A stretch of 44,728 bases of DNA from Bdellovibrionales bacterium (GTDB lineage: Bacteria > Bdellovibrionota > Bdellovibrionia > Bdellovibrionales > UBA1609). A program made the position numbers and the translations under genes. Shown here one piece after another: positions 5,724 to 38,351 of the stretch. Position 1 is the stretch's first letter, and each line of letters begins with the position of its first letter. The notes under the pieces are model-generated. The model was given only the letters and a program-made list of their open reading frames with translations, had not been told where the DNA came from and searched no databases. The DNA lies in the NCBI GenBank assembly GCA_051011135.1, contig JBPCUO010000026.1:1-44728 (forward strand), written 5' to 3'.

Positions 5724-5750
5724 TAAAAAACTAAAAATTGATTCCGATAA
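5724..5750 (+). promoter_or_regulatory. Sigma28 (FliA)-like promoter
   Basis: TAAA-N15-TCCGATAA vs consensus TAAA-N15-GCCGATAA; ends 7 nt before ATG 5758. Confidence 0.45.
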
Positions 5751-5757
5751 TAATAAT

Positions 5758-6585
5758 ATGCCTAGAACAAAAAGAGATAAACTCTTAAATCAATTAAATA
5801 AAGATCTTTTTGAATCTGTCAAAAAAGGTGATCTGGTTTTAACTCAATCTCTTATTAAAAAAGGTGCGAATGTGAATGGTAGATCTTCTCATTGGTTTTT
5901 TCCAAACTGGACAGTATTGATGTATGCAGCTTGGAAAGGATATACAAAATCTGCCAAAGTCTTGTTGGAGCATGGGGCTGATGTCCATGCAAAAAATAAT
6001 AAAGGACGGACAGCTTTAATGGTTGCTGCCAAAAATGATTATCTAAAATTTGCCAAAGTTTTAATTCAAAAAGGTGCAAGGGTTAATGAAACAGATCGTA
6101 AAGGACAGACAGCTTTAATCCATGCCGCTTGGAAAGGTCATTTAAATTTTATAAAATTCTTAATGGAACATGGCGGAAAGGTGAGCATCAGAGATAATAA
6201 GGGACGAACAGCTTCGAGATTAGCTTTTTACTCAAGTCTATTAGATTCTTTAACACGAAGTGGAAGAAGATATGGTCCATCTATTAGCATGACTGAAACG
6301 GTTCAATTTCTTCGTAAAGTAGGCACTACCAAAGATTATATAGCTAAACAAAAGGAAAAAAATAAATGCAAAAGATGCAAAACAAAGATTACAAATCTCG
6401 AAGTAAAATCTTGCCCTTATTGTAATGTAAAAAATCCATTAAATAGTCTTCACCCATTTCTTTCTCTTCTTATTAGCATTGGTTTTATTCTTGCATTTAT
6501 TTTTTTAATTGTAATTGAAGTCTTGGGTTGGTTTAAAATAGATGGAATGCAAATATTAATAGATTTCATACTAAAAAAACCGTAA
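5758..6585 (+). CDS. Ankyrin-repeat protein with C-terminal Zn ribbon and transmembrane helix (copy 2)
   Basis: Clear paralogue of 4046-4960; 6364-6418 matches 4697-4751 at 54/55 nt; CKRC...CPYC; C-terminal hydrophobic helix. Confidence 0.93.
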   Translation: MPRTKRDKLLNQLNKDLFESVKKGDLVLTQSLIKKGANVNGRSSHWFFPNWTVLMYAAWKGYTKSAKVLLEHGADVHAKNNKGRTALMVAAKNDYLKFAKVLIQKGARVNETDRKGQTALIHAAWKGHLNFIKFLMEHGGKVSIRDNKGRTASRLAFYSSLLDSLTRSGRRYGPSISMTETVQFLRKVGTTKDYIAKQKEKNKCKRCKTKITNLEVKSCPYCNVKNPLNSLHPFLSLLISIGFILAFIFLIVIEVLGWFKIDGMQILIDFILKKP

Positions 6586-6723
6586 TACACAAAAAAGAAT
6601 TTTTAGAAAAAAAACTATTACAATCTGTTTAAAAATAAGAAAATATCTCAAATTCCTAAAAAAATATTTAAAAAAAATCGAGATTATAGTAAGTTTAATA
6701 AAACAATTAAAAAGGAGAAATTT

Positions 6724-7374
6724 ATGAACAAAATGAAACAAACTTCTTATGCATTGGTCGCGTTGATCATGTTATTTACTTTATCCAACTCAGAAGCATT
6801 TCTTTGGGCATCAAATTCTCTTCTCATAAGAGCAGCTAAGAAAGGAAATGTATCTGAAGTGAAAAAATTACTAGCAGAAGGTGCGGATGTGAATGCGAGA
6901 GATAGTGATGGAAGAACGGCTTTACTAGCGACCATGTTATCGGTGGCAAAAGGAACGCCAGAAGAACAGCTCCAGATTATAAATATATTGCTGGCAGCAG
7001 GTGCAGATGTGAATGTAAGAGGTAATGATTTTGGAAAAACGGCTTTGATGAGATCCGTTGATCCATGGTCGCTTGGATCTGGAAATACCAGGATTATAAA
7101 TGTATTAATAGTAGCAGGTGCAGATCTGAACGCGAGAAGTAACTGGGGAAAAACGGCTTTAATGTATGCCGCCAGTAATTATCTCAAGGCTGTAAATGTA
7201 TTAATAGCAGCAGGTGCAGATGTGAATGCGAAAGATAATGATGGAAAAACAGCTTTAATGTATGCCGCTGGTTCATGGGCAAATGGAAATATCAGGATTG
7301 TAAATGCATTGCTGGCAGCAGGCGCAGATGTGAACGCAAAAGATAATAAGGGAAGAACTTACCTCGATTATTAA
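6724..7374 (+). CDS. Secreted ankyrin-repeat protein
   Basis: Signal peptide (...LSNSEA); about five repeats GKTALMYAA...LLAAGADVNAKD; AAGGAG RBS. Confidence 0.93.
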   Translation: MNKMKQTSYALVALIMLFTLSNSEAFLWASNSLLIRAAKKGNVSEVKKLLAEGADVNARDSDGRTALLATMLSVAKGTPEEQLQIINILLAAGADVNVRGNDFGKTALMRSVDPWSLGSGNTRIINVLIVAGADLNARSNWGKTALMYAASNYLKAVNVLIAAGADVNAKDNDGKTALMYAAGSWANGNIRIVNALLAAGADVNAKDNKGRTYLDY

Positions 7375-7424
7375 TTAAAATTGATAATAACAAATAAGCC
7401 TTTTGAGGCTTGAACTTATTCAAC

Positions 7425-7459
7425 AAAAAAAAAGACTACTTTAAAAGTAGTCTTTTTTT
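7425..7459. terminator. Bidirectional intrinsic terminator
   Basis: A-tract-GACTACTT-TAA-AAGTAGTC-T7 perfect hairpin between convergent ankyrin genes. Confidence 0.85.
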
Positions 7460-7484
7460 ATTTAAAATTATTTATTAATGTTTA

Positions 7485-8039
7485 TTAATTTCGATATGAA
7501 ATTAAAGCCTTTACGACATCTGAATGACCTGCTCTCTCAGCATATTTTAAAGCAGTATGTCCTACATTATCTCTAGCATTCACATCCGCTCCATTAGACA
7601 CTAAATAGTCTACTACTCTTAAAAAACCTCTATCCGCTGTTAACATTAAAGCAGTTCTTCCTTGTATATCTTGCTCATTTATATTCGCTCCTGCAGATAT
7701 TAAAAGAACTGTTAAAGCTATATAACCACCTGAAGATCCACCCATTAAAGCAGTATATCCTACATTATCTCTAGCATTCACATCCGCTCCAATAGCTACT
7801 AAATACTTTACCACATTGTAATAACCATCATAAGCCGCAAGCATTAAAGGAGTCTGTCCTTTTTTATTTCTTGCGTTCATATCTGCACCTTCCGATACAA
7901 GTGTGTTAGCAAGTTCTGCATTTCCTGTTCTAGCTGCTGTTAATAAGCATTGATTTTTAGTTTTAAATATACATGTTATCGATCCCCATGACGGGACTGA
8001 AAATAACAGAATATTTAAAATCATTAATTTTTTTAACAT
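7485..8039 (-). CDS. Secreted ankyrin-repeat protein
   Basis: Signal peptide (...VPSWG); repeats GQTPLMLAA, GADVNARDNVG x2; AGGAG RBS. Confidence 0.93.
   Translation of the reverse strand: MLKKLMILNILLFSVPSWGSITCIFKTKNQCLLTAARTGNAELANTLVSEGADMNARNKKGQTPLMLAAYDGYYNVVKYLVAIGADVNARDNVGYTALMGGSSGGYIALTVLLISAGANINEQDIQGRTALMLTADRGFLRVVDYLVSNGADVNARDNVGHTALKYAERAGHSDVVKALISYRN
7547..7791. repeat. Near-identical 47-nt direct repeat, 198 nt apart (two ankyrin units)
   Basis: 7547-7593 vs 7745-7791 differ at one base. Confidence 0.85.
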
Positions 8040-8731: not shown

Positions 8732-10897
8732 TTAAAATAAAGCCTCTAATCCTACACCTACCGATTGATGATCTTCCTTTTGTTGATATTTTCCCTCATA
8801 AAAGACACCTAATTTAAAACGACTATGAATTTGATAAGATAGCAACATTTCTAATTTATTTTTGTAGATTTTAAAATCTTTTGTTTTGAGCTCATATTCC
8901 ATATCTAAACCCAATCGAGATATGATAGGAATTTCTTTTTCTAATTCTACTTCTAATTCTTTATTTGTTTTTATCAAAGCTTCCAAATAGATCAATAAAG
9001 GAAGCTTATAAGTTAAACCTAAAACTCCTAACCATTTTTGATCCTGATAAAAAGCTCCTCCTAATAGGTGCATATTCTTAGAAACTTTTCGACTTGCTTT
9101 TGTTTCCAGCTTAAAAGCTTTAGGATCTTTTAAAGATTCGAAGTCTTTAAAAGATTTAAAATCTTTAAATTCAATGCCGTCCACTTTTCCTTTGATGGAG
9201 AATTTTAATTTTTTCTTTTTAGCACTCCATTTTATTTCAGATTGATTAGTGAATAAAAGTAAATGGGTTTTAAAAAACCAACTTGAATCTTTAATAAAAT
9301 CTTTAGAAAATAATTTTTCTTCTTCTATTAAGTCTTGAGGTCTTTTAAAATCCTCGTACTTAATGAGTCGACCCATTCCCATTTTCATATGGTAGAGATT
9401 ATGACAATGAAACATCCATAGACCTGGTGCATTCATATAAGCTTCAATAGTAATTTTTTCAAAAGGTTTGACATCTACAGTATGAAATAAAGGAGAATAA
9501 TTTTTTTGACCATTGAGAACGCGAAAAAAATGACCATGAAGATGCATAGGGTGAGTCATCATTGTTTTGTTTGCAAAATGAAAGCGAACAACATCACCTT
9601 TTTTAACATTAATATATTTATCTTGTGAAAAAGTTTTACCATTTAAAGACCAAGTATAATTCGACATGCTTCCACTTAATTCTAAATCGATATCATGGCG
9701 AGGGTATTTGTTGCTGTAGTTAGTTTTTGTAAGAGATTTTAACATGTTATAATCCAAGCTTTTTTTCATAGATTGAGTTTTTATTTTGGAGTGATCATGT
9801 TTCATCTTAGAATGATCATGTTTCATTTTGGAGTGTTTCATCTTGGAGTGATCACCATGTTTCATCTTAGAGTGATCATGGTCCATCTTGTAAGGATTTG
9901 GTTTTGCAAAAGAAGGAGCTTTTTCATATTTTTGATCCTTTCCAAAAATTAAACTGCCATGACCTGTAAAATCACTTGCCGTGGCTCGAAATTCTAAACC
10001 TTGCGTGATTGGAGGCATTTTAAAAGACAAATCATAAGTTTCACCCATGCCTAAAAAAACTTCATTCACACGGACAGGTGAAACGCCCATTCCATCTTTT
10101 GAAATGACTTTAAAAAATCTATGCTGACCTAAGTTTAAATAAAAATGAGTAGAAGCTGCAGCGTTAATAACTCTTAACCGAACTCTATCTCCTGATTTAA
10201 TTTTAGAAAAAGTAGCCTGCTGTTTTCCATTAATTAAAAAAGCATCATAGCCCACATCACTTAAATCCATAACCCCCATACCTGTCCATTCTCCTTTAAT
10301 AAAATCTTTAAAAGAAGATTTGAAAATGGCATCTAAAAGCGATGGAAAGAATTTTTTCTTAAAAGAATAATACTCTCCCTCTTTTTTAAGATTTTTTAAA
10401 ACTTGTATGGGTTTTTCATTGGTCCAATCACTAAGAACAGCCACTAGATCATGTTTAAAATAATATCTAGGTCGAGGCTCTTCAATAACAATAGCCCCAT
10501 ATAAGCCTCTTTGTTCTTGAAGGTTTGTATGAGAGTGGTACCAATAAGTCCCTGCGTGTTTGATAGGAAATTGAAAAGTAAAAGTTTCGCTAGCTTGTAT
10601 CAGTTTATTGTTAGAAAAAGCAGGGCCATCCATATTCCAAGGAACAAGAATTCCATGCCAATGAAGAGTGGTTGGTTCATTGGTTTTATTAGTCACATGA
10701 ATAACAGCGGTATCTCCTAGTTTAAATCGTAAAGTAGGTGCAGGAATAGAGCCATTAATCGCTAAAGCATGTTTAACATCTTTTCCTGTGAGATTAACCA
10801 GCTTATTTTCAACAGTTAAATGATAAACCTGATTCTTACTATAAGAAGAAAAAGTGAAAAAAATAATAAAAACAAAAAAAGCAGAAGTAAATCTCAT
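8732..10897 (-). CDS. Multicopper oxidase (CopA/PcoA-like) with His/Met-rich insert and barrel-like C-terminal domain
   Basis: All four Cu motifs: HWHG, WYHSH, HPMHLHGH, HCHNLYHMKMGM; signal peptide. Confidence 0.93.
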   Translation of the reverse strand: MRFTSAFFVFIIFFTFSSYSKNQVYHLTVENKLVNLTGKDVKHALAINGSIPAPTLRFKLGDTAVIHVTNKTNEPTTLHWHGILVPWNMDGPAFSNNKLIQASETFTFQFPIKHAGTYWYHSHTNLQEQRGLYGAIVIEEPRPRYYFKHDLVAVLSDWTNEKPIQVLKNLKKEGEYYSFKKKFFPSLLDAIFKSSFKDFIKGEWTGMGVMDLSDVGYDAFLINGKQQATFSKIKSGDRVRLRVINAAASTHFYLNLGQHRFFKVISKDGMGVSPVRVNEVFLGMGETYDLSFKMPPITQGLEFRATASDFTGHGSLIFGKDQKYEKAPSFAKPNPYKMDHDHSKMKHGDHSKMKHSKMKHDHSKMKHDHSKIKTQSMKKSLDYNMLKSLTKTNYSNKYPRHDIDLELSGSMSNYTWSLNGKTFSQDKYINVKKGDVVRFHFANKTMMTHPMHLHGHFFRVLNGQKNYSPLFHTVDVKPFEKITIEAYMNAPGLWMFHCHNLYHMKMGMGRLIKYEDFKRPQDLIEEEKLFSKDFIKDSSWFFKTHLLLFTNQSEIKWSAKKKKLKFSIKGKVDGIEFKDFKSFKDFESLKDPKAFKLETKASRKVSKNMHLLGGAFYQDQKWLGVLGLTYKLPLLIYLEALIKTNKELEVELEKEIPIISRLGLDMEYELKTKDFKIYKNKLEMLLSYQIHSRFKLGVFYEGKYQQKEDHQSVGVGLEALF
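9787..9888 (-). repeat. Coding minisatellite (HDHSKMK-type units of 15-24 nt)
   Basis: MDHDHSKMKHGDHSKMKHSKMKHDHSKMKHDHSK; repeated gatcatgtttcat-like units on the + strand. Confidence 0.85.
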
Positions 10898-11751: not shown

Positions 11752-12948
11752 TTAATAATCCTTTAGTCTAACTGTCTCATAAATAGAATTTAAAAAGACT
11801 AATAAATTATCAGAAAAACCTCTCAATGATTTTCCATTCACAAAAAAACTAGGCGTTCCTTGAATATCAGCCTTAGTTCCTGATTGTGCCATATCTTGAA
11901 TCGCTTTCTTAGCTTGGGGGCTTTCTAAACAACTCAAAAAGCTTTTAGAATCCAAGGCGACATCTTGAATCCTGTCTCGAATCAAATCTAAAACCTTGTT
12001 CTTATCCGCTTGATAGTTCCTAAAAGCGTCTTGATTATCAAAAATAAAATCATGAACTTTCCAACCTTGATTTTGTTTTTGAGCACAAAAAACTGCTTGG
12101 CTCAATAAGCAAGTTGTGCCGGTTCCTCGAAAAGAAATCGCTTTGTTACAAGATCCATCCAGAGGAAAAGCATAAAAATGAAAAGCCACATCCGGATGAT
12201 TTTTAAAAAAGGTCTTTAATGAAGCTTGAACTCTTTGACAGCTAGGACATAAAAAATCAGCAAATTCCACCAAGGTTATTCGGGCCCCCTCCGGACCTTT
12301 TTTTAATAAAGGAGCTTTAGAAAAAGTTATAGCTTCTTCATATTTCCAATCTAATAAAAGAGCTTTAATCTGTTTTTTATGATCTTTAATATCAAAATGA
12401 GTCACAAAAATCATATGAAGAAAAAAAGAAAATGCAAAAATACAAGCGGCTAAATAAAAAAAACTTTTTTCACGAACAAGAATAAGTAGATCTTTAAAAA
12501 AATTATTAAAAACATCTTTTCTAAAAACCCAAAGCAAGCAGACAAGATTTATAAAAGATAAAATATAAGTTGCCCAACACATAGGGCAGTAAAGATTTTT
12601 TAAAAGAGAAAGAGCTAGCATCACTAAAGACGCAAAAGCCACAAAACCTGATAAAGAAACAACCAGCTTTCTCCAAGAAGAAGTTCTAAAAAAACCCACA
12701 AGCGAGCAGAATAATAGAAAAGAAAGAACTAAATTAAAACTTACACCAAAGCTAGATAAAGAGACCCCAAAAATCTTAGAATAAGGAGATAACAAAGCCT
12801 GATCACAATTTATTTTTTCACTGATGTTGCAAATGGAACTTGTTTGAGCCGTACCTGCTTGCAGCTGATAAGTGCGCTTTGTGAGATAAAAATGCAACCC
12901 ACTTGATATAAAGGCTGTAATAAATGATAAAATCAACCATTTCTTCAT
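11752..12948 (-). CDS. Vitamin K epoxide reductase (VKOR) - DsbA/thioredoxin fusion
   Basis: C-x7-C loop, SPYS, CPMC in a TM region; C-terminal EFADFLCPSC and IQGTPSFFVNG. Confidence 0.9.
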   Translation of the reverse strand: MKKWLILSFITAFISSGLHFYLTKRTYQLQAGTAQTSSICNISEKINCDQALLSPYSKIFGVSLSSFGVSFNLVLSFLLFCSLVGFFRTSSWRKLVVSLSGFVAFASLVMLALSLLKNLYCPMCWATYILSFINLVCLLWVFRKDVFNNFFKDLLILVREKSFFYLAACIFAFSFFLHMIFVTHFDIKDHKKQIKALLLDWKYEEAITFSKAPLLKKGPEGARITLVEFADFLCPSCQRVQASLKTFFKNHPDVAFHFYAFPLDGSCNKAISFRGTGTTCLLSQAVFCAQKQNQGWKVHDFIFDNQDAFRNYQADKNKVLDLIRDRIQDVALDSKSFLSCLESPQAKKAIQDMAQSGTKADIQGTPSFFVNGKSLRGFSDNLLVFLNSIYETVRLKDY

Positions 12949-28532: not shown

Positions 28533-30113
28533 TTAAGAATCACTCCAAATGGAAAGATAATCCTTAAAAACTTGATCTGTACTTTTTTGATCTGGACAAA
28601 TCTCTAAAAGAGAAGAAGTCTCATTTTGATCCACACGAAACCCCTCAAAATCTTTAAAACATTTATAATCAAAATTCCAAAATTGAGCCAAAGAAGAAAA
28701 AGACAAATGATGTTCATTTAAAAAAGCTTTATTTTTAAAAAGACGAGAGAATATCTGACCTCCAGAGTTATTCATAATAAATAAAGTCCAAGGAGGAATG
28801 TTTTTACCAATCCAAAAAGCGCTTAAGTCATAAAGGGCGCTGATATCACCTATAATACCAAAATTAGGATGTGATTTTTTACACTCCCCAAAAAATCGAG
28901 AAATTAAACCATCAATTCCATTCACTCCATTTTGACCTGTCACAGATAAATTATGCTTACAAACTAAAGAGGCTTGATCCCATAAACGAATGGGCAAGCT
29001 ATTTCCTAAAAAAACATGAGAGTTTTTTGGAAAAGATTTTTTCAATCGTCTTATCCATGCTTCTTCACTCCTGGGGTATTTTTCTAAAATTTTTATCCAT
29101 TTTTCAGATTGTTCTCTATCGTAATTAATGAGATTTTCACTGTGATTGTTTAAATTCAAAAGATGTTTTTTTAACAGCTCTAAATGATCCCATAAAGAAA
29201 AATGAAATGTCTCCCTCGATAATCCTGCATAAAAAGGAGGAGATGATAAATTTAAAACTTCTATATCTGTCGTTTCTAAATCTCTCCAAAATCGAGAACG
29301 AGGAATCCCTCCTAGGCGAATCACCCCATCTATTTCCTTTTTTTTAACAGCATAGTTTAATATTTTTTCACCTGATAAAAGTCGTTCTTGAATATGATGA
29401 AGTTGAGATAAAGCTTCCAGATAAAAAGGCTGTTGACTTGTTTTTAAAAAATTTTCAACCAAAGGTTTTTCTCTTTCTTTTAATTCACCAACAAAAATTA
29501 ATGGTTTTTTACATTTTTTAAAAAAACTTTCAAAACCTTTATGATCTTTTTTAGAAAGATCTGAATAAATAGATCCGCCTTTTTTTATGGAAGTTTTTGA
29601 AAAATCTAAATTTTGAACAGCCGAATCTAATAAAGGCTCGTTCAAACAAACATTCAAATGAAGATGACCCTGTTTTGGAATCCAAGAAGATAGACTGACA
29701 TCTTTGGGCTGATATAAGTCCAAAGAGCAATAGCTATAATCTTTAAAAAGAGCAATAGGATCTTTTATAGTTTGAGGAGTCGCTTGTTTTCTATAAGAGG
29801 GAGGACGATCTGCTGTGATTAACACTAAAGGAATTCCACTGTAATAACCCTCTATTACACTAGGAAGCAATTCCGCAACGGCTGTTCCTGAAGTTGTAAT
29901 AACAGCAATAGGAGCTTGATCTCTTCGAGCTCGTCCTAAAGCAAAAAAACCACAAGATCGTTCATCATAAAAATAACAAATCTCGATACCTTTTGCCCTC
30001 GATAAAACTTCTATAAAAGGAGCGCAACGACCTCCGGGGCTAACACAAAAAGTTCTGACACCCATCGAAACAAGTTTTTGAATAATATCTTCTGCTAATT
30101 TAATATTTTTCAT
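28533..30113 (-). CDS. menD: SEPHCHC synthase (menaquinone biosynthesis, ThDP enzyme)
   Basis: VSPGGRCAP, DERSCGFFALG, TTSGTAVAEL, TADRP, GNSLPIR, NGIDG, GD...YD, NNSGGQIF. Confidence 0.95.
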   Translation of the reverse strand: MKNIKLAEDIIQKLVSMGVRTFCVSPGGRCAPFIEVLSRAKGIEICYFYDERSCGFFALGRARRDQAPIAVITTSGTAVAELLPSVIEGYYSGIPLVLITADRPPSYRKQATPQTIKDPIALFKDYSYCSLDLYQPKDVSLSSWIPKQGHLHLNVCLNEPLLDSAVQNLDFSKTSIKKGGSIYSDLSKKDHKGFESFFKKCKKPLIFVGELKEREKPLVENFLKTSQQPFYLEALSQLHHIQERLLSGEKILNYAVKKKEIDGVIRLGGIPRSRFWRDLETTDIEVLNLSSPPFYAGLSRETFHFSLWDHLELLKKHLLNLNNHSENLINYDREQSEKWIKILEKYPRSEEAWIRRLKKSFPKNSHVFLGNSLPIRLWDQASLVCKHNLSVTGQNGVNGIDGLISRFFGECKKSHPNFGIIGDISALYDLSAFWIGKNIPPWTLFIMNNSGGQIFSRLFKNKAFLNEHHLSFSSLAQFWNFDYKCFKDFEGFRVDQNETSSLLEICPDQKSTDQVFKDYLSIWSDS

Positions 30114-30134
30114 TTCATGACCCTATAGTAAAAT

Positions 30135-31166
30135 CTAAAGAAATATTTGACGAACCTGCTTCCTTTTTAGAAATAATTCTTCCCACTCTTTTTGTAAAAC
30201 ACTATCACGAACAATACCAGCGCCTGAGTAAATTCTTATTTTAGAATTCATCCATTCCATATTTCTTATACTCACAAGACAAAAAGCCCGATCTTTACCA
30301 TTGAAATAACCAAAAGGAGCTCCAAAAAAATGCCTTGGTTTTTGCTCCTGATTCAACCATGAAAAAGCTTCTTTTTTAGGGTAAGATCCTAAAGCGGCTG
30401 TGGGATGAAGTTGGTGACATAATTTTACATAATCTAATGGCCCCAATAATCTCCCTTTTTTTTGAGTGCACAGATGCTTTATTTTACCAAAAACCTTTTC
30501 ATAAGTTTTTTGCTCTGTCCAATGAACTAAGCCTTTTAAACTTTCTTCAATACTTTGAATCACATACTGATGCTCCATCATTTCTTTTTGATTTTCAAAT
30601 AAAGAGGCTCCTGGATAAACGGAAGTCCCTGCTAAAGCCATTGTTGAAAAAGATTCTTTTTGATAAGAAAATAAAATTTCAGGAGATAAACCCACCAAAC
30701 CTCTTTGAGAATTCCAATAACCATACAAGTAAGAATCTTGATAAAAGAATGCCTTTTTTTTATAAAAATTTTTTAAAAAATAAAGAATATCTGGTTTTTG
30801 ATCTAATTCTTCAAAAAAAACAGGAACCATTTTTTTAAATTTAGAAGAACGAATTTGATTTTTAATTTGATAAAAAGCCTGTTGAAATTCTATAAAACTA
30901 GGAGGCTTAATCAGGGAAAAAGTCTTTTTTGTGTCAGAAACCTCTGTTCCTAAAAATTTTAATAATTCCTCTTTTGAGACTTTACAAATTGCCTTAGCTT
31001 GAAGCCAAGCTTGTTTTTCTTTTAAAAAAAAATCTGTTATATAGAATCCTAAACAAGGCTTGGAAGAGGTTTTAAAAGGACCTTCCCCTAGTAAATATTG
31101 ATCTTTTGAAATTTGTAGTAAAATCCCCTCTTTCAACCATGCCTTTTTATTGATAGAAATCACCAT
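30135..31166 (-). CDS. menF: Isochorismate synthase (chorismate-binding enzyme)
   Basis: SPEIL, TMALAGT, KE..EH, HL.T, LHPTAAL...P, VSIR, GAGIV, EW.EL..K; directly upstream of menD. Confidence 0.88.
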   Translation of the reverse strand: MVISINKKAWLKEGILLQISKDQYLLGEGPFKTSSKPCLGFYITDFFLKEKQAWLQAKAICKVSKEELLKFLGTEVSDTKKTFSLIKPPSFIEFQQAFYQIKNQIRSSKFKKMVPVFFEELDQKPDILYFLKNFYKKKAFFYQDSYLYGYWNSQRGLVGLSPEILFSYQKESFSTMALAGTSVYPGASLFENQKEMMEHQYVIQSIEESLKGLVHWTEQKTYEKVFGKIKHLCTQKKGRLLGPLDYVKLCHQLHPTAALGSYPKKEAFSWLNQEQKPRHFFGAPFGYFNGKDRAFCLVSIRNMEWMNSKIRIYSGAGIVRDSVLQKEWEELFLKRKQVRQIFL

Positions 31167-31263: not shown

Positions 31264-32049
31264 ATGAAAACCACATCTATCCAAATAGGCTCTCAAACTA
31301 TAGACGATCATTCTTTTCAAGTTTGGGCTGGCCCTTGCTCTATCGAAAATCAAACACAGTTTGATAAGATTATAAAGTTTGTTACCCAACAAGGAGCCTC
31401 TGGGATTCGAGGAGGTATTTATAAGCTAAGAACTGATAAAAATAGTTTTCAAGGTTTAAAAGAAGAAGCTTTTCCTATTATTAAGAATTTTAAATCTCAG
31501 CATAAAGACACTCCCTTTATTAGTGAAGTGACAGATCCTCGACAAATCGAAACATTAAATGAAATGGTAGATGTCTTTCAAGTGGGAACAAGGAATATGT
31601 TCAACTATGAATTGCTTAAAGAGTTAGGAAAAACAAATAAACCTGTTTTATTAAAAAGATTTTTTTCTGCTCGTATCCAAGAATGGATTAAAGCCGCTGA
31701 GTATGTTTTTCAAGGTGGAAATTCAAAAGTGATTCTTTGTGAAAGAGGAATTAGAACTTTTGAAACAGCCTATAGAAATACTTTAGATTTTAATGCCGTT
31801 GCCTTTCTTAAAAAAGAAACCTCTTTTCCTGTATTTGTAGATCCCTCTCATGGAACTGGTTTTCGCTCTTTAGTTCCTGCTTTAACAAAAGCAGCTTTAA
31901 CATTAGGAGCCGATGGGGTGCTTATAGAAGTTCATAATGAACCTGAAAAAGCTCTCTCTGATTCTCAGCAAAGTCTTAATTTTGAAGAATTTGAAAATCT
32001 TATGACAGAACTTAAAAAAATAGCACCTCTTGCCAACAAACGATTGTAA
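31264..32049 (+). CDS. aroF: DAHP synthase type I-beta, catalytic barrel only
   Basis: AGPCSIE, RGGIYKLRT...FQGL, QVGTRNM, LCERGIRTFE, DPSHGTG, EVH..PEKALSD. Confidence 0.95.
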   Translation: MKTTSIQIGSQTIDDHSFQVWAGPCSIENQTQFDKIIKFVTQQGASGIRGGIYKLRTDKNSFQGLKEEAFPIIKNFKSQHKDTPFISEVTDPRQIETLNEMVDVFQVGTRNMFNYELLKELGKTNKPVLLKRFFSARIQEWIKAAEYVFQGGNSKVILCERGIRTFETAYRNTLDFNAVAFLKKETSFPVFVDPSHGTGFRSLVPALTKAALTLGADGVLIEVHNEPEKALSDSQQSLNFEEFENLMTELKKIAPLANKRL

Positions 32050-32082: not shown

Positions 32083-32997
32083 ATGATCATTCTTATAACA
32101 GGTGGAACTGGTTTTGTTGGTTCCGCTTTAATTCAAAAACTAAAAAAAGAAAAGCATAAAATTTATTTATTAGTGCGCTCTTTTACAAAACAAAAAGACT
32201 CTTCTTTAAAAGAGTTTTTATGGTTGGATACAAATCAAGAATTACCTTTGGAAGCTTTCCCAAAAGAGGAAGACTACGGAATCATCCATTTATTAGGAGA
32301 GCCTATTTCTCAATGGCCTTGGACTTCTCATAAGAAAAAAAAGATTTATGACTCTCGAGTGATGGGTACAAAAAATCTTGTAGAAACTATAAAAACACTT
32401 CCCAATAAACCTCAATTTTTTTTAGCGGCTAGCGCTACAGGAATTTATGGAAATCAACATTCTAAAGAAGTATTTGAAAATTCTCCTATTGATAATCCTC
32501 ATTTATTTTTACAAAAAGTTTGTCAGGATTGGGAAGAAGAGGTGTTAAAACTTCAAGAACTATCAAGGGTGATCATTTTAAGATTAGGTTTGGTTTTATC
32601 TTTTCAAGGAGGGTTTTTGAAAACCCAATTAAAATGGTCTCAAGCTTTTGTTCCTATTGTGATGTATCGGGATAAATTATGGTTAAGTTGGATTCATAGG
32701 GAAGATTTAGTTTCTCTTATCTATTGGATACTCTTTAAAAAACAGATCAAAGGAATCTACAATGCAACATCGCCTCAACCCTTTGATATGAATTCTTTTT
32801 TTGATCATGTTTCTACTCACTTGAAAAAGAAATACTTAAGAATTCCTCAACCTCTTTTTTTAATGCGACTTTTAGGAGGAGAAATGATAAAAAATCTTTT
32901 GGTCAGCTGTTATGTGAGTTCTAAAAAAATTCTTGAGGAAGGATTTGAGTTTAAATATAAAAATTTAGAAGATGTTTTTAAAAACCCAGATCTTTAA
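32083..32997 (+). CDS. TIGR01777-family NAD-dependent epimerase/oxidoreductase
   Basis: ITGGTGFVG, W....K..IYDSRV, ASATGIYG, VCQDWE, SWIHRED. Confidence 0.9.
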   Translation: MIILITGGTGFVGSALIQKLKKEKHKIYLLVRSFTKQKDSSLKEFLWLDTNQELPLEAFPKEEDYGIIHLLGEPISQWPWTSHKKKKIYDSRVMGTKNLVETIKTLPNKPQFFLAASATGIYGNQHSKEVFENSPIDNPHLFLQKVCQDWEEEVLKLQELSRVIILRLGLVLSFQGGFLKTQLKWSQAFVPIVMYRDKLWLSWIHREDLVSLIYWILFKKQIKGIYNATSPQPFDMNSFFDHVSTHLKKKYLRIPQPLFLMRLLGGEMIKNLLVSCYVSSKKILEEGFEFKYKNLEDVFKNPDL

Positions 32998-34025
32998 ATC
33001 TGATCCAAGCGCTTTAAAAGAATATGATCAGCAATGACCAAACAAGCTATAGCCTCTACAACACAAACAGCACGAGGGCCAATGCAAGGATCATGTCGTC
33101 CTTGTTGAGCAATAGAGCCTAGAGAAGAAGGGGCTTTAAAAGCAACTCTCACAACAACACGCTCTCCTGAAGTTAAGCCACCTCTAATCCCTCCATAATT
33201 TTTAGAATCTTGATGAAACACAGTTCCTTTTATAGGAAGGCAAGAAAAACCTGAGCCAATCTCGACACCACAAGAAGCTCCTAAACTCATTAAAGCTTGT
33301 GTTAGATCTGATTTAAATTTCCAAAAAATAGGCTGACCTAAAGATTTTGGAACACCCTCTATCCAAAGTTCTACAACAGAGGCTAAACTTTCTCCCTGTT
33401 CTTTAGAGGCCATTAAAAGATCTGAAACTTTTTGAGATTTTTCTTTATGAGGAAAACAAGCTGGATATTCTTCTGATAAAATCTTTTTTTGAAATAAATC
33501 TTCTGCAATTTTAAACTCTGAATCTTCTAAAGCAATCTTTCCAATTTGCCGAACAAAAGCCATAACTTTAAAATTTTTATGCAACTGTTGCAGTAACATA
33601 CGAGCTATAGATCCTGCCAACACTCGAGACAAAGTCTCTCTTCCAGAAGAGCGACCTCCTCCTCTATGATCGACATGCTGAAATTTATCTTTCCATAAAT
33701 CATCAGCATGACCTTTTCTAAATTTTGTTTTTATAGATTCATAATCTTTAGATCGAGCTCCTTGATTTCGAACTAAAATAGCAATAGGCGTTCCTAAAGT
33801 TTTTCCTTCATAAATACCACTTAAAATTTCTGGCTGATCCAACTCAACTCGAGAAGAAGTCCATGGCCAACGACCGGGGCGGCGACGATCAAGTTCTTTT
33901 TTTAAAAGATCCAAGGAAAAAGACACTCCCGATGGACAGCCTTCTATAACAGCACCTAAAGCCGGCCCATGACTTTCTCCAAAACTGTGAAATTTAAAAA
34001 TATGACCAAAAGTATTTTGACTCAT
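32994..34025 (-). CDS. aroC: Chorismate synthase
   Basis: FGESHGPA, RRRPG, GKTLGTPI, RGGGRSSGRET, GGIRGG, GRHDPC. Confidence 0.97.
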   Translation of the reverse strand: MSQNTFGHIFKFHSFGESHGPALGAVIEGCPSGVSFSLDLLKKELDRRRPGRWPWTSSRVELDQPEILSGIYEGKTLGTPIAILVRNQGARSKDYESIKTKFRKGHADDLWKDKFQHVDHRGGGRSSGRETLSRVLAGSIARMLLQQLHKNFKVMAFVRQIGKIALEDSEFKIAEDLFQKKILSEEYPACFPHKEKSQKVSDLLMASKEQGESLASVVELWIEGVPKSLGQPIFWKFKSDLTQALMSLGASCGVEIGSGFSCLPIKGTVFHQDSKNYGGIRGGLTSGERVVVRVAFKAPSSLGSIAQQGRHDPCIGPRAVCVVEAIACLVIADHILLKRLDQI

Positions 34026-35797
34026 TGTTGTTCCAAATCTAAAAAAATCTCTCTTTGTCTTTTTGCCTGCTCTTTAAAAATAAAATCTCCTGCTTGATAA
34101 GAAATATTACTCATTAAAGCATACTCTCGACCTGGAGAATCTTCTACATAATTTAAATCTATAATTTGTTGAACTTTCCAGTTTTTAGGAGGCCAAAGAC
34201 AATTTTTCATACGCTTTCTACCAACAGCCCATATTAAAATATCATAATTTCTGTTTTTTTCTCCTTGAATTACCTCTCCTGTTCTTGCGGAGTAAAAATC
34301 AGCATCTGGAAAAGCTTCTTTTAAAGGATCTCGAACTCCTCCACCTCCCCAAACACAGATCGATTTATTTTTGAGTCTCTTTTTTAAGGATTGAAAAGCA
34401 TAGAAATCTGTATTGTAAGCCTTCCATTGATTATCATGAAAAATCAAAGTGTTAGCACTTTTTAAAAGAGTAGATTTCTCATCTCTAACATTCGCTTGAA
34501 AACTGGCTTCCTGTTTTAAGGGAGAGGTCACTGCAAAAAAAACAAATCCTAATTTTTTAAAAATATTTAAATTTTCTTTAGTGAGTTCTCCTTCTTTTAA
34601 AAGAAGAGGAAAAATAGGGATCGATCGACTCTTGTAAAAAAACAAACTTTGCTCGCTAGGAGTTGCTGAAAAATCTATGGGATCACCAATAACAGCTCCT
34701 AAATTTTTTTTAGTTTTTGAAAAATAAACAGCTTCTGAAAAAAAGGGTTGATCTAAAACTGAAGCAGCTCCTTCTCTTATAAAATGCAAAAAATTTTCTG
34801 AACCAAAAGCATTACGAAACCATCTCCATCGCCCCTTGGAAGATCGAGGTAAAAAACTTCTATTGGAAGGATCTTCTTGCTTCCATTGCCACCCCATTTC
34901 TAACTCTTTAAAATCAAAAATCTCTATCGCTAATTTTAAATGATAATTTTTATAAGAAGAAAATTTTTTGAGTAAAGACTGTAAATCCTCCTCCCCTCTT
35001 TCGTGAAGAGATAAAATAGAAACACCTTTGGGGGGCTCCCCTAACTTTAAATCCCAACTCCAATGGATTTTATCTGGAATCTCACAAAACAATCGATTCG
35101 AATAAGAACTAAAAAGGAGTTTATTTTTAGGAAGAATTTTTGAGACTTGATTTGTAAATGCTTCATGAGTTGTGGAATCATGAATTTCAAAAAAACGAAT
35201 TCCCCAAGACATTCTTTTATTCAAATACTCCTGTAATTTTTCGTCCTCTTTGGGAAGATTGTTAGGATTTAAAGATAAACAAAACAAATCTTTAGAATAA
35301 GATTCAAGACCTAAAAAAACTTTATCAAAATTTTCGGCTTTTTCAAAATGCTCTAACCGACAAAAAGTTTCATCACACTGCTCTAAGTAGTATTTGTTTC
35401 TTTCTAAATAAAGATCTTTAGACTCTTGAAAAGGATTTTTATCTGTTAAAAAAGGCCGGTTAAAAAACAACCTTCCTGCCTGATCTGTGGGGCGAGTTAA
35501 AAATATAACATTCCAATCTTTTTGTTTTTTAAATTTAAATCCAGCACCTACCGAAATATAATTATCATTTTTAGCATCAATATTTTTAATTATTTTTTGA
35601 AAAACTTTTTGTTCCAAATCTCTAAAAAGATCCTCTCCTTTAAGGAAAATATCTTGAATAGAGGATGAGAATTCTTTTTCAATTTCTTGATCTAAATCAA
35701 AATAAGCAGCTTTTTTATCTTTATTTTTTAAGCTTTCAATAATTTTCAACCAATGAGTTTTTCCTGTTCCTCTATGACCTATAATGAGGTTTATCAT
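34022..35797 (-). CDS. Trifunctional fusion: shikimate kinase (AroK) + type I dehydroquinate dehydratase-like (AroD) + shikimate dehydrogenase (AroE)
   Basis: N-terminal GHRGTGKT, DLDQEIE, FRDLE; middle ILSLH...LKLA (His and Schiff-base Lys region); C-terminal GDPI..S, VTSPLK, ANTL, NTD, WGGGGV, DLNY. Confidence 0.82.
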   Translation of the reverse strand: MINLIIGHRGTGKTHWLKIIESLKNKDKKAAYFDLDQEIEKEFSSSIQDIFLKGEDLFRDLEQKVFQKIIKNIDAKNDNYISVGAGFKFKKQKDWNVIFLTRPTDQAGRLFFNRPFLTDKNPFQESKDLYLERNKYYLEQCDETFCRLEHFEKAENFDKVFLGLESYSKDLFCLSLNPNNLPKEDEKLQEYLNKRMSWGIRFFEIHDSTTHEAFTNQVSKILPKNKLLFSSYSNRLFCEIPDKIHWSWDLKLGEPPKGVSILSLHERGEEDLQSLLKKFSSYKNYHLKLAIEIFDFKELEMGWQWKQEDPSNRSFLPRSSKGRWRWFRNAFGSENFLHFIREGAASVLDQPFFSEAVYFSKTKKNLGAVIGDPIDFSATPSEQSLFFYKSRSIPIFPLLLKEGELTKENLNIFKKLGFVFFAVTSPLKQEASFQANVRDEKSTLLKSANTLIFHDNQWKAYNTDFYAFQSLKKRLKNKSICVWGGGGVRDPLKEAFPDADFYSARTGEVIQGEKNRNYDILIWAVGRKRMKNCLWPPKNWKVQQIIDLNYVEDSPGREYALMSNISYQAGDFIFKEQAKRQREIFLDLEQQ

Positions 35798-36966
35798 AGA
35801 GAAGAACCTACTAAAGAAAAAAAGTCAGGAAAACTTTTGTTGATAGCCTCTTTTCCTTGAATATCAATAGGAACACTTAAGCTTTTCACTAATTGAGCTG
35901 CCATGACCATTCGGTGATCATGATCGCTTTTAAAAGAAAAAGAAGGTATAGAAGACCAATTTTCTTTTCCATAAATCCATAAAGTATCTTTTTTTAATTC
36001 TGTTTGAATCCCTGATAAATTTAAAAGCTCTATCACTTTTTCCAATCGATGAGATTCTTTAAAAGCTTGATGAGATAACCCCGATAACTGACTCGCTCCT
36101 TCAGCTTTAGCGCATAAGACAGATAAAACAGGAAACAAATCAGGACTCCCTGATAAATCTACATTAATATTTTTTAAATTTTTAGTTTGAAAAATAGAAA
36201 TAGTTTCGTTTTTTAATTCAATACCAACTCCCATGTTTTTTAATAGATCTAAAAAAATGGAGTCAGGTTGTAAGCTTTTCGATTCCCAATTTGTAAAAAC
36301 AACTTTTCCATTTAAAACAGCCAAAGCAGCCAAAGCAAATAAACAACTTTGATCTTGCTCAACTTTATAATAAAACTTTTTTAAAGTTTGATTCTTTGGT
36401 ATATAAAATTCTTTTCCTGATTGTTTAATTTCCATTCCTAATTGTTTCACAAAATCAATAGTCATTTTAAAATACAAATAAGATATTTTTTGACTTGTTA
36501 AAGAAAAATAAATATCTCTTTCATAATTCCAACTGTTTAAAACAAGAGCCGAGGCATACTGACTGCTGACTTGTGAAGGAACCACCAAATAATCTCCTTG
36601 AGGCTGCCACCCTTGAGACACTAAACACCAACCCTCAGAAGTCTTAAAAATTTCCACTCCTAATTGAGATAAAATTACAGAAAGGTCCTTGAAAGGCCTT
36701 CTCCATAAAGCATCCTCTCCTTTTAATAAAAATCTGCCTTTTTTTCTAGAAAGTCTTAAAGCTAAAAAACGAAAAGCTGTTGCGCTTAAACCGCAATAAA
36801 AATCTTGGCTCGTATCTAAAGAAGCAATGGCTTTTTTCATAACTTGAATATCATCGCATAAATTATCGCCTTCAATAATCAACCTTGGAAACCAACTCTT
36901 CACAATAAGAGCTCGATTTAAAAGAGATTTAGAAGGAGGAGCTTGTCCTAAAAAACGAAAAGACAT
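35794..36966 (-). CDS. aroA: EPSP synthase
   Basis: PPSKS, SATAFRFL, RRP, SSQYASAL, PDL, KESHR, DHRMVMA, KSFPDF. Confidence 0.93.
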   Translation of the reverse strand: MSFRFLGQAPPSKSLLNRALIVKSWFPRLIIEGDNLCDDIQVMKKAIASLDTSQDFYCGLSATAFRFLALRLSRKKGRFLLKGEDALWRRPFKDLSVILSQLGVEIFKTSEGWCLVSQGWQPQGDYLVVPSQVSSQYASALVLNSWNYERDIYFSLTSQKISYLYFKMTIDFVKQLGMEIKQSGKEFYIPKNQTLKKFYYKVEQDQSCLFALAALAVLNGKVVFTNWESKSLQPDSIFLDLLKNMGVGIELKNETISIFQTKNLKNINVDLSGSPDLFPVLSVLCAKAEGASQLSGLSHQAFKESHRLEKVIELLNLSGIQTELKKDTLWIYGKENWSSIPSFSFKSDHDHRMVMAAQLVKSLSVPIDIQGKEAINKSFPDFFSLVGSSL

Positions 36967-36968
36967 TT

Positions 36969-37976
36969 TTAAAAGATTCCTTGTCGTTGAGCTTCTTGAA
37001 TGATTTCTTTTTCAGATACTGATTTTATAAAAACCTTCCCAGGTTTTTTGATAAAAACAAAATCTATTTGATGAGAAGATTTGTATTTTTTATCTTTTCT
37101 TAAAAATTTGATAAATTTATTTTTTGAAACTTTTTTTAAAGAAACAGGTATTAAAGATTTTATCTCATCAAAATCTGCTTGATTTAAAAAGTTTTTTTTA
37201 AAACTCCATGTTATAGAAAATAATAACCCCTGTAAGACGGCCACTCCATGAGGAAGACCATAAACCGATTCAAAGATATGACCTATCGTATGCCCTAAGT
37301 TTAATACTTTTCTTATTCCTTTTTTTTCATAAGGATCTTTTTTAACAATTTTCATTTTTAAAACAATAGCGGCTTGAGTCATTGAATCCGAGATTTGAGG
37401 AGATTTTTTTAGATTTTTATAAAAGCTTCCTCCTCCTATCAAAGCCATTTTTAATAACTCTCCATATCCAGATTGAACTTGTTTTTTAGAAAGAGTTTTG
37501 AAAAAATCTTTAACAATAAAAACAGCTTTTGGAAAATGATAAGATCCAATAAAATTTTTTATATTTTGAAAATTTAAAGCTGTCTTTCCTCCATGAGCAG
37601 AATCTAAGGCTGCTAAATAAGTTGTAGGAATATGCATGACAGGAGATCCTCTTTTATAGACAGAGGCTAAAAAACCTGTCACATCCCCTATACTACCTCC
37701 ACCTATACTTATAAATGCAAAATCGGTATGACAAGTTTTTTCAGAAATTTTTAAAATTTCTTTGAGATGAACCCCCAAAAATTTAACAGACTTAATCGAC
37801 TCACCTGATGGAATAAAATAAAAATGAAATCCTTTTTTTTTAAACCAACTTTTTAAAATCTTTTTGTTTTTAAATTTAGAATCACAAATGACAATAAAAT
37901 GCTTATAGGAATCGTCTAAGAGATTAGAAATTTCAGAAAATCTAGGTAATTTTGAACTCGATAAAACAGAAAACAT
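36969..37976 (-). CDS. aroB: 3-dehydroquinate synthase
   Basis: GGGSIGDVTGF, PTTYLAALDSAHGGKT, GELLK, LNLGHTIGH, HG.AV. Confidence 0.95.
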   Translation of the reverse strand: MFSVLSSSKLPRFSEISNLLDDSYKHFIVICDSKFKNKKILKSWFKKKGFHFYFIPSGESIKSVKFLGVHLKEILKISEKTCHTDFAFISIGGGSIGDVTGFLASVYKRGSPVMHIPTTYLAALDSAHGGKTALNFQNIKNFIGSYHFPKAVFIVKDFFKTLSKKQVQSGYGELLKMALIGGGSFYKNLKKSPQISDSMTQAAIVLKMKIVKKDPYEKKGIRKVLNLGHTIGHIFESVYGLPHGVAVLQGLLFSITWSFKKNFLNQADFDEIKSLIPVSLKKVSKNKFIKFLRKDKKYKSSHQIDFVFIKKPGKVFIKSVSEKEIIQEAQRQGIF

Positions 37977-38030: not shown

Positions 38031-38351
38031 TTAATGAATCTTTATATTTTGTTTCATGAGATCTATAAGGAAGTCTCTTTCTAAGTCATGATCTTCTTTT
38101 ATAAGATAAGACATTTTCTTTTGAGCTTCTTTTTGAGCTTTCATACAAGCTTCAACAACACTTAGTCCTTCTCCTTTGACTTTAAGATTAGAGAAACTCG
38201 TATCTATTAAAAAAGTAACACTATACTTTTTTTTATTTTGATCCATATAAATCACAACAGGAGCATTTAACTCTGAAGCTTTTTGATAAACAAAAGCCCG
38301 CTCTTCTTTAGAAGGTTTAAATTTTCCTATCAATTGAGATGCCGATACCAT
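38031..38351 (-). CDS. Hypothetical protein
   Basis: 106-aa ORF filling the gap; TTGACT-N16-CAAAAT 7 nt before ATG. Confidence 0.6.
   Translation of the reverse strand: MVSASQLIGKFKPSKEERAFVYQKASELNAPVVIYMDQNKKKYSVTFLIDTSFSNLKVKGEGLSVVEACMKAQKEAQKKMSYLIKEDHDLERDFLIDLMKQNIKIH

Follow-up and report, generated by a model that had tools for sequence, protein, structure and literature searches.

A chorismate operon with an AroK-AroD-AroE fusion in Bdellovibrionales that follows the domain order of AROM, probably by parallel evolution

A gene cluster on the minus strand of a Bdellovibrionales bacterium (UBA1609) carries, in transcription order, aroB, aroA, a single 591-amino-acid open reading frame joining AroK, a 3-dehydroquinate dehydratase (DHQase) and AroE, and aroC, as found by ORF calls together with Pfam and NCBIfam profiles. 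The window, that is, the whole stretch of DNA analysed here, comprises positions 1-44,728 of the forward strand of contig JBPCUO010000026.1 (assembly GCA_051011135.1) and belongs to the small (1.2 Mb), AT-rich and 91% complete genome of an uncultured member of the order of Bdellovibrio. The order of genes and domains at the locus is that of AROM, which runs DHQS-EPSPS-SK-DHQase-SDH according to PMC6851490, but it is spread over three ORFs with stop codons and not contained in one polypeptide. We consider it likely that the locus is a functional chorismate operon with a trifunctional K-D-E protein and that its likeness to the AROM order reflects parallel evolution, not common descent. The case is built on which genes are present and how they join, on the fold, the conserved catalytic residues and the distribution, and on the rejected AROM kinship of AroA and AroB. 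A previous sequence-only reading of this DNA had described the four genes in the same order, and the ORFs and profiles agree with it (Table 1).

Table 1. Features of the chorismate locus and its surroundings
Feature	Pathway step	Position	Strand	Evidence and remarks
menD, SEPHCHC synthase		28533..30113	-	TIGR00173 262 bits (cut-off 244.2)
menF, isochorismate synthase-like		30135..31166	-	PF00425 146.9 bits; TIGR00543 177, below cut-off 224.75
DAHP synthase type I-beta	1	31264..32049	+	NF006421 351.3 bits (cut-off 335); TIGR01361 315 (cut-off 267.75)
aroC, chorismate synthase	7	32994..34025	-	343 aa; PF01264 322.2 bits; start overlaps the aroK-aroD-aroE stop by ATGA
aroK-aroD-aroE ORF		34022..35797	-	591 aa; SKI and Shikimate_dh_N domains
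Shikimate dehydrogenase domain	4	34025..34717	-	residues 361-591; TIGR00507 E 1.6e-13
Divergent type I 3-dehydroquinate dehydratase domain (predicted)	3	34718..35302	-	residues ~166-360; fold and HHalign
Shikimate kinase domain	5	35318..35797	-	residues 1-160 of 591; PF01202 45.3 bits
ATGA overlap, aroA stop / aroK-aroD-aroE start		35794..35797	-	sequence read
aroA, EPSP synthase	6	35794..36966	-	390 aa; PF00275 169.4 bits
aroB/aroA spacer, 2 nt (AA), TAA stop to ATG		36967..36968	-	sequence read
aroB, 3-dehydroquinate synthase	2	36969..37976	-	335 aa; PF01761 106.3 bits and PF24621 84.9, both above cut-offs

AroC also exceeds the cut-off of its equivalog model (NF003793, 322.6 bits, cut-off 321); AroB and AroA score below the cut-offs of theirs (TIGR01357, 242.4 bits, cut-off 305; TIGR01356, 233.5 bits, cut-off 287.25). 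Residues K13, S14, R18, D39, S135/Q136, D276, K303/E304, R307, H351/R352 and K377 of AroA are invariant in 25 relatives, and we take these positions to be the EPSPS active-site residues. The DAHP synthase gene is located about 1 kb from the operon on the opposite strand and is syntenic in L013, L020, L021 and L027; with it and the operon, all seven steps to chorismate are encoded, going by the predicted activities. The adjacent menF-like gene is the sole match to PF00425 (Chorismate_bind) in the genome, and the PDT, CM_2 and TrpA profiles gave no match in this 91% complete assembly. Judged from the gene content, chorismate in this reduced genome probably feeds menaquinone via the adjacent menF and menD and not the aromatic amino acids.

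The junctions, a spacer of 2 nt and an ATGA overlap at each of the other two, are read in the sequence exactly as they had been reported: aroB/aroA is ATC TTT TAA AA ATG, aroA/aroKDE is CTATGATAA and aroKDE/aroC is CAATGAGTC. By our own ORF calls, 15 of the 28 loci with separate but adjacent aroA and KDE genes have the ATGA overlap between the two. The four genes are probably co-transcribed and, through the spacer and the overlaps, translationally coupled. With 26 promoter-like sites against an expected 26.2 and 3 terminator-like sites against an expected 4.4, the window does not depart from chance, and an Rfam search of it returned no match. Of the listed sequencing runs that contain this DNA, none is recorded as RNA.

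It is extremely improbable that an assembly or homopolymer error masks a larger fusion in this organism, be it AroB-AroA or all five enzymes, even though the aroB/aroA junction sits in a T4/A5 run in which one added base joins the frames. The check for a homopolymer error proposed earlier was made on assembled contigs, not raw reads: contigs from four public runs of two independent studies cross 36966-36969 and 35794-35797 with substitutions only and no indels. Since the junctions are free of indels in all of them, aroB and aroA are separate genes and not a homopolymer artefact. The nearest relative (G008) likewise keeps the two genes apart by a 2-nt spacer, aroB and aroA are separate in 28/28 clade loci where they are adjacent, and among the best 150 representatives none is longer than 1125 aa.

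The 591-aa product would consist of an N-terminal shikimate kinase, a central diverged Schiff-base dehydroquinase and a C-terminal NADP-type shikimate dehydrogenase. The AF2 model of the protein has a pLDDT of 94.2 and a pTM of 0.92. The kinase domain passes its Pfam cut-off (22.1 bits for PF01202), and all 43 homologues keep G7-K13, D34/D36, R59, G84-A85-G86 and R133 unchanged; we assign these to the Walker A motif, the D-x-D shikimate site, the GGG motif and the conserved Arg, respectively. The dehydrogenase domain scores below the cut-offs of PF08501 (22.2 bits, cut-off 27) and TIGR00507 (50.4 bits, cut-off 200.2), and the profile of its family matches shikimate dehydrogenases in the PDB with E-values down to 1.4e-21. 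In Foldseek it superposes on H. pylori AroE with a TMt of about 0.71. K428, T463, D464, G484 and G487 are invariant and N462, G485 and G486 nearly so, presumably representing the S-P-x-K and N-T-D motifs with the catalytic Lys and Asp, and the Gly-rich dinucleotide loop.

The middle domain does not match PF01487 in Pfam even at E<=10; thus, the AroD assignment had to come from a predicted structure and from comparing profiles. Both point to a very divergent type I dehydroquinase, so that the AroD identity given to it in the sequence-only reading holds by fold and HHalign, with the correction that Pfam does not recognise the domain. HHalign of the Bdello-type DHQ domain, the type found in the window, with 12 canonical bacterial type I enzymes gave an E-value of 1.2e-4 (55% probability) and paired E204, H265 and K288 with the canonical Glu, His and Lys. 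Together with R328, Q350 and P351, these residues are invariant in 43/43 homologues, down to about 32% identity; we assume K288 to be the Schiff-base Lys and H265 the general-base His, with E204 as the accompanying Glu. The window protein has H206 and Y232 where most family members carry Arg, and in the HHalign alignment both fall opposite two arginines of canonical type I sequences. Because of these replacements and the failure of Pfam, we count the dehydroquinase activity as inferred.

The missing PF01487 match, the limited HHalign probability and the two replaced arginines would also fit a degenerate, inactive remnant or spacer, with step 3 absent or carried out by an unrecognised enzyme. 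We regard this as unlikely: the six residues named above are conserved throughout the family, the fold is predicted confidently (AF2, Foldseek), and the rest of the pathway is kept in a genome of 1.2 Mb. Moreover, no other DHQase, neither type I (PF01487) nor type II (PF01220), was found in the 91% complete genome.

The K-D-E fusion is not rare in the phylum. Of 151 genomes sampled from the phylum, 38 encode a full-length KDE protein, as do 33 of 41 relatives, and the fusion and the B-A-KDE(-C) order are probably an old trait, widely inherited in several families. The genes are contiguous as B-A-KDE in 28 of the 41 loci examined and in no locus (0/41) do they occur in another order, which upholds the conservation among relatives on which the earlier reading depended. 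However, the B-A-KDE order is not obligatory, since B-A and KDE-C are separate in six of nine genomes of the same genus; aroA has been relocated away in G018.

A further fusion one base away had also been proposed, and such proteins do exist. Sister families encode AroA-K-D-E four-enzyme proteins (L032 with 1073 aa, L220 with 1079 aa and 42 proteins, P0122-P0163), which probably arose by losing, more than once, the stop in the aroA/KDE overlap. In the AroA tree, one tetra-fusion is located inside the unfused clade (support 97), apart from the other 13 (support 99), and thus the A-K-D-E fusion or its fission happened more than once. An AroB-AroA fusion of 728 aa is encoded in G120 of the same phylum, and the AroB tree separates 13 BA-fusion and 13 Bdello-type sequences from 36 typical and AROM sequences (aLRT 100). 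An apparent B-A frame of 749 aa in G182 is not a fusion; there aroB is broken across two frames. A literature search, which included passages of PMC3018139, PMC6851490 and PMC9885046, returned no bacterial AroK-AroD-AroE or AroA-K-D-E fusion.

The sequence-only reading had offered two interpretations, kinship with AROM (as relative, intermediate or product of fission) on the one hand and a convergent arrangement on the other. Overall it is partly supported: the convergent arrangement stands, the kinship is not borne out. Per-domain phylogenies were evaluated with AU tests (iqtree2, LG+F+G4, fast search), in which AROM was represented by only three sequences, closely related and all of the fungal type. 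A clade of AROM with the Bdello-type sequences was rejected for AroA (deltaL 106.6, p-AU 1e-4) and for AroB (deltaL 103, p-AU 0.001); shikimate kinase (p-AU 0.20), SDH (0.50) and the concatenated SK+SDH alignment (0.22) did not reject it. The phylogenies thus speak against kinship with AROM for the first two enzymes and leave the other two compatible with it.

The identical domain order, which relatives keep in a fusion of four of the five domains, and the SK and SDH tests could be explained if the Bdello-type K-D-E and A-K-D-E proteins and AROM descended from one fused ancestor, either through a bacterial intermediate or through gene transfer, whichever its direction, and later fission. AROM is also the top Foldseek rank of the whole model (E 2e-21 against its SK-DHQ-SDH part), but it holds this rank because three domains match simultaneously. 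We judge a common fused ancestor improbable. Beside the rejections for AroA and AroB, no free tree unites AROM with the Bdello-type: in the SK tree they are eight nodes apart, and in the SK+SDH tree AROM joins the Planctomycetota D-E-K fusions (aLRT 100). Fungal AROM EPSPS falls within a set of 44 ordinary class I bacterial EPSPS sequences in the AroA tree (support 99), a placement favoured by the choice of the outgroups as best matches to AROM; it scores 268 bits against E. coli EPSPS and 88 bits against the window AroA. The SDH domain of the window scores 24.7 bits with the AROM-type model TIGR01809 and 50.4 with the generic aroE model, and the domains are packed unlike those of AROM (Foldseek TM 0.27-0.30, rmsd ~18 Å).

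The dehydroquinase domains argue in the same direction. HHalign gave an E-value of 0.32 between the Bdello-type and AROM domains, so no detectable profile similarity, compared with 8e-31 between the AROM domain, which is canonical, and canonical bacterial enzymes, and hmmsearch between the Bdello-type and canonical DHQase sets found no cross-match. As judged by these comparisons, the Bdello-type domain is no closer to AROM DHQ than to ordinary bacterial enzymes. One could still imagine a single ancient fusion behind K-D-E and the C-terminal SK-DHQase-SDH half of AROM, transferred between early eukaryotes and a Bdellovibrio-like bacterium that lived on or inside these hosts, with AroB and AroA replaced at a later time or acquired from another source and the bacterial DHQase diverging fast thereafter. 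The SK, SDH and SK+SDH tests are compatible with this scenario, to which we give a very slim chance. Bacterial loci in Desulfobacterota, Syntrophales and Ignavibacteria that match across AROM residues ~15-1573 were considered as well; their genes are unfused and run aroB-(aroD)-aroE-aroA-aroK and, as these loci are not colinear with AROM, they served as outgroups only.

How surprising is the shared order under parallel evolution? The chance that five independent genes match the AROM order is 1/120. D-E adjacency or fusion is recurrent, as seen in Ignavibacteria, Planctomycetota and plants, and therefore we estimate the residual coincidence ourselves at about 1/12, from the position of K before or after D-E and the 3! 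possible arrangements of B, A and KDE. Selection for co-expression or for proximity of the enzymes may have produced the likeness.

Compatible with parallel evolution is the idea that AroB, AroA and KDE form a non-covalent AROM-like complex and that the order reflects co-translational assembly. The fusion of two proteins is a usual hint that their separate forms interact, and here sister lineages fuse AroA to KDE and a related gene lineage fuses AroB to AroA. The closely overlapping gene ends also hint at translational coupling. Such a complex is possible, but we are inclined to doubt it: with the B-A and KDE-C loci apart in two thirds of the same-genus genomes and aroA moved elsewhere in G018, adjacency is dispensable.

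AROM is a textbook multi-enzyme fusion whose domain order is not that of the pathway. With parallel evolution as the preferred explanation, a large bacterial lineage would have reached the same order independently, and several stages coexist in it: unfused genes, the K-D-E and A-K-D-E proteins and, in a related gene lineage, B-A fusions. Such a natural series could be used to test assembly, stoichiometry and active-site proximity as possible reasons for the order. Since the dehydroquinase step is invisible to standard annotation, the shikimate pathway will be wrongly reported as incomplete in these genomes. The 591-aa family, going by sequence and model, would also give structure-function studies a type I dehydroquinase that has diverged very far.

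Among known systems, AROM/Aro1 (PDB 6hqv, 7u5s, 7tbv) unites these five activities in an identical order, and KDE aligns to its SK-DHQ-SDH part. It differs in being one polypeptide where the bacterium has three, in its canonical DHQase, from which that of the window has diverged far, and in its packing (TM ~0.3); AroA and AroB of the window are outside the AROM clade, and its operon includes aroC. The plant DHQ-SDH enzyme (Arabidopsis; PDB 2gpt, 2o7q, 2o7s, 6bmb) likewise has a type I DHQase N-terminal to SDH, and in Foldseek both domains superpose on the model (TM 0.58/0.68; TMq 0.57-0.59, TMt 0.67-0.68, rmsd 4.8-4.9 Å, ~490 columns). However, the plant protein is without a kinase domain, shares 18% identity and has a DHQase that is found by standard profiles. 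Other bacterial shikimate fusions combine different partners or orders, and none has the K-D-E order: AroK-AroB (NF010556, NF010627), AroB-AroA (P0165-P0208), whose AroB is kin to that of the window, and D-E or D-E-K in Ignavibacteria and Planctomycetota, with the kinase last in D-E-K. The Bdello-type AroA-K-D-E proteins of the sister families belong to the protein family of the window for AroA as well as for K-D-E, form one clade with the window genes (support 98) and are flanked by aroB and aroC in the same way; they have lost the stop that ends aroA ahead of KDE, which the window retains as the ATGA overlap.

On the minus strand of the window, four closely packed ORFs encode AroB, AroA, a fused AroK-AroD-AroE protein (KDE) and AroC. 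The aroB/aroA junction reads TAA-AA-ATG, and the aroA/KDE and KDE/aroC junctions are ATGA overlaps, exactly as the sequence-only reading had described them. The homopolymer error that this reading had considered was not found: contigs of four public runs from two studies covering the region span both junctions and carry substitutions only, with no inserted or deleted letters. Two of these runs come labelled as cave metagenome, possibly with the source sample among them; the other two bear an organism label and contain a strain about 98-99% identical to the window. The 106-aa ORF located 54 nt upstream of aroB occupies the same position in two related loci (L013, 53% identity; L024, 42%).

Features of the window (Pfam and NCBIfam assignments where indicated)
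Feature	Position	Strand	Remarks
Phage-type integrase	54-962	+	at window start, adjoining ribosomal protein genes S4 and L31
Ankyrin-repeat protein	4046-4960	+	first of four consecutive (4046-8039)
Ankyrin-repeat protein	5758-6585	+
Ankyrin-repeat protein	6724-7374	+
Ankyrin-repeat protein	7485-8039	-
Region of VKOR-DsbA/thioredoxin fusion, 721-aa multicopper oxidase and YHS-domain protein	8732-10897 and 11752-12948	-	fusion: quinone-dependent disulfide oxidoreductase by family
menD and isochorismate-synthase-like (menF-like) gene	28533-31166	-	menD over its cut-off
Type I-beta DAHP synthase	31264-32049	+	over its curated cut-offs; strand opposite to the aro genes
aroC, chorismate synthase	32994-34025	-	343 aa; Pfam, NCBIfam
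KDE protein	34022-35797	-	591 aa; N-terminal shikimate kinase (SK) domain, shikimate dehydrogenase (SDH) substrate-binding domain from residue 369 (Pfam, NCBIfam)
aroA, EPSP synthase (EPSPS)	35794-36966	-	390 aa; Pfam, NCBIfam
aroB, 3-dehydroquinate synthase	36969-37976	-	335 aa; Pfam, NCBIfam
106-aa ORF	38031-38351	-	no Pfam family; weak XseB-like NCBIfam match (E 0.036)

The middle of the KDE protein (residues about 166-360) had no Pfam match even at E<=10, and a bifunctional dehydroquinase (DHQase)/SDH NCBIfam model extends back to residue 260. An alignment of 43 homologues, with identity down to about 32%, revealed invariant residues in the SK domain (G7-K13, D34, D36, R59, G84-G86, R133), in the middle region (E204, H265, K288) and in the SDH domain (K428, T463, D464, G484, G487, with N462, G485 and G486 nearly invariant). 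Profile-profile comparison with HHalign matched the middle domain to 12 canonical bacterial type I dehydroquinases (E 1.2e-4, 161 columns) and paired E204, H265 and K288 with the Glu, His and Schiff-base Lys motifs of those enzymes. No other type I or type II dehydroquinase was found in the 91%-complete genome. Because of these conserved residues, the profile match, the failure to find another dehydroquinase in this genome and the fold seen with AlphaFold2 and Foldseek, the middle domain is predicted to be a highly diverged type I dehydroquinase and the 591-aa protein to be AroK-AroD-AroE. A caveat on the AroD identity is that the window's copy has His206 where 27 of the 43 sequences have Arg, and Tyr232, unique among the 43, where 29 have Arg.

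The sequence-only reading had asked whether the gene order is conserved, and in the loci compared it is. We compared 41 loci (the window and 40 relatives) using our own domain profiles; all are kin and all were picked for holding KDE, and none shows a different order of the genes present. aroB, aroA and KDE are contiguous in 28 loci: aroC is also adjacent in 18 of these, lies at least 1.1 kb off or outside the locus in eight, and in two aroA is fused to KDE (L032, 1073 aa; L220, 1079 aa). In our ORF calls, a 4-nt aroA/KDE overlap is seen in 15 of 28 loci in which aroA and KDE are separate neighbours. Among the remaining loci, two have aroA-KDE-aroC at a contig edge, one has aroB-aroA separated by 2.3 kb from KDE-aroC, and nine have KDE, with or without aroC, without a nearby aroB or aroA. 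Six of these nine belong to the genus of the window; in unlinked genomes of this genus aroA is located elsewhere in five of five and aroB in four of five, the two mostly still adjoining. In the last locus (L022, genome G018) aroB precedes KDE with a 10-nt gap and aroA is on another contig (G018:C3:115815-116957), thus the operon order can lose its middle gene. In a complete Bdellovibrio-like genome (L240, G182:C1:3402500-3411000) aroB is broken into two overlapping frames, of 189 aa and 170 aa, followed by intact aroA and KDE, through either a frameshift or a sequencing error.

Fused K-D-E was present in 33 of 41 relatives. Across 151 sampled genomes of the phylum, 38 encode it in full length, 38 have single-domain matches only and 75 have no match at E<=1e-10. 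By family, the full-length protein occurs in 12/12 (f1, including the genome of the window), 13/13 (f10, with nine single-contig genomes of 3.0-4.0 Mb among its members), 1/1 (f4), 10/14 (f15) and 2/10 genomes (f23), and homologues bear the names Oligoflexia, Bdellovibrionales, Bdellovibrionaceae and Pseudobdellovibrionaceae. With a four-enzyme relative as the query, an exhaustive search yielded 680 cluster representatives at E<=1e-30; among the best 150, 21 have at least 886 aa (AroA-K-D-E type), the others have 374-729 aa, and no representative is longer than 1125 aa. Other bacteria (Myxococcota and Ignavibacteria by name) encode AroB-AroA fusions of about 700-770 aa, as does one genome of the window's phylum (G120, 728 aa). 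In the full-text literature covered, from which the central paper on AROM origins was absent, we found neither AroK-AroD-AroE nor AroA-K-D-E proteins described from bacteria.

The order is that of the eukaryotic AROM protein, and the operon could accordingly be a relative, an intermediate or a fission product of AROM, as had been proposed from the sequence. We compared it with three of four AROM-like proteins found (the remaining one, P0199, is a fragment with 100% identity to P0201); these are fungal-type, since P0201 gives 2093 bits to Chaetomium AROM over its full length. The AroA tree (quick PMSF, 83 rows x 425 columns) kept 14 of 41 tetra-fusions, 13 of 38 AroB-AroA fusions and 39 of 82 outgroup rows after near-duplicate taxa were dropped; its outgroups were those 80 prokaryotic loci, out of 584 confirmed candidates, that matched AROM best, a choice that favours AROM-like EPSPS. 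It contains one Bdellovibrio-type clade (support 98), one AroB-AroA-fusion clade (100) and AROM (100), which falls within a set of 44 rows that are ordinary class I EPSPS (99). One four-enzyme protein is nested in the unfused clade (97) and the 13 others form their own (99), showing that fusion or fission at the aroA/KDE junction happened more than once. In the AroB tree, 13 AroB-AroA-fusion and 13 Bdellovibrio-type rows are split from 36 typical and AROM rows (aLRT 100), which makes the AroB of these fusions kin to that of the Bdellovibrio-type.

For SK, SDH, type I DHQase and AroB, outgroups came from 30 named genomes of AROM-matching records (at least 13 phyla; type I DHQase present in 11), and the SK and SDH tests used 16 of 121 KDE proteins and 10 of 42 tetra-fusions. 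We constrained AROM and the Bdellovibrio-type to one side of a branch and ran AU tests (LG+F+G4, fast search), which rejected this grouping for AroA (deltaL 106.6, p-AU 1e-4, 49 x 416) and AroB (deltaL 103, p-AU 0.001, 62 x 274), but not for SK (deltaL 25.6, p-AU 0.20, 73 x 137), SDH (deltaL 1.0, p-AU 0.50, 70 x 204) or SK and SDH concatenated by genome (deltaL 18.5, p-AU 0.22, 65 x 330). AROM and the Bdellovibrio-type clade were not united in any of the unconstrained trees. Raw similarity points in the same direction: AROM EPSPS gives 268 bits to E. coli EPSPS, 221 to an AroA-Cmk fusion and 88 to the window AroA, and the window SDH domain gives 24.7 bits with the AROM-specific model TIGR01809 versus 50.4 with generic aroE. 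For the dehydroquinase, hmmsearch found no cross-match between 184 Bdellovibrio-type and 27 canonical or AROM domains; HHalign gave E 0.32 for the Bdellovibrio-type domain against AROM and 8e-31 for AROM against canonical bacterial enzymes. The sequences thus offer no positive evidence for kinship with AROM and speak strongly against it for two of the five domains. In the SK+SDH tree, fungal-type AROM (P0201-P0203) groups with two Planctomycetota D-E-K fusion proteins (L171/L172; G056, G054; aLRT 100). The cause may be long-branch attraction, or the grouping may truly point to where the C-terminal half of AROM came from.

We read the locus as a real, inherited chorismate operon whose genes are translationally coupled and which encodes a trifunctional enzyme. 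The AROM-identical order is most economically explained by parallel evolution, in line with the convergent origin also put forward from the sequence. Since D-E linkage arises repeatedly, we estimate that only a modest coincidence, of about 1 in 12, is left to explain. Fusion is ongoing at overlapping stop/start junctions in this lineage, and in this way such an order can get fixed in one polypeptide.

Together with the DAHP synthase, aroB-aroA-KDE-aroC encode all seven steps to chorismate. Profile searches of the whole, 91%-complete assembly found the menF-like gene as sole chorismate-binding enzyme and no match for prephenate dehydratase, CM_2 chorismate mutase or TrpA, profiles that each match in 13-14 of 14 control genomes. 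Judged from this gene content, the locus most likely serves menaquinone synthesis. The VKOR-DsbA/thioredoxin fusion, located beside the multicopper oxidase and the YHS-domain protein, is consistent with retained menaquinone genes. The row of ankyrin-repeat proteins, the small genome of low GC content (1.2 Mb, about 30% GC) and the two organism-labelled runs together hint at a host-associated way of life.

The AlphaFold2 model of the 591-aa protein, built from the 43-homologue alignment, is confident, with a pLDDT of 94.2 and a pTM of 0.92. In Foldseek it matched the SK-DHQase-SDH portion of fungal AROM with E 2e-21, but at a TM of about 0.3 and an rmsd of about 18 A, thus the modelled KDE domains are packed differently from those of fungal AROM. 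Both domains of Arabidopsis DHQ-SDH superpose on the model (TMq 0.57-0.59, TMt 0.67-0.68, rmsd 4.8-4.9 A, about 490 columns).
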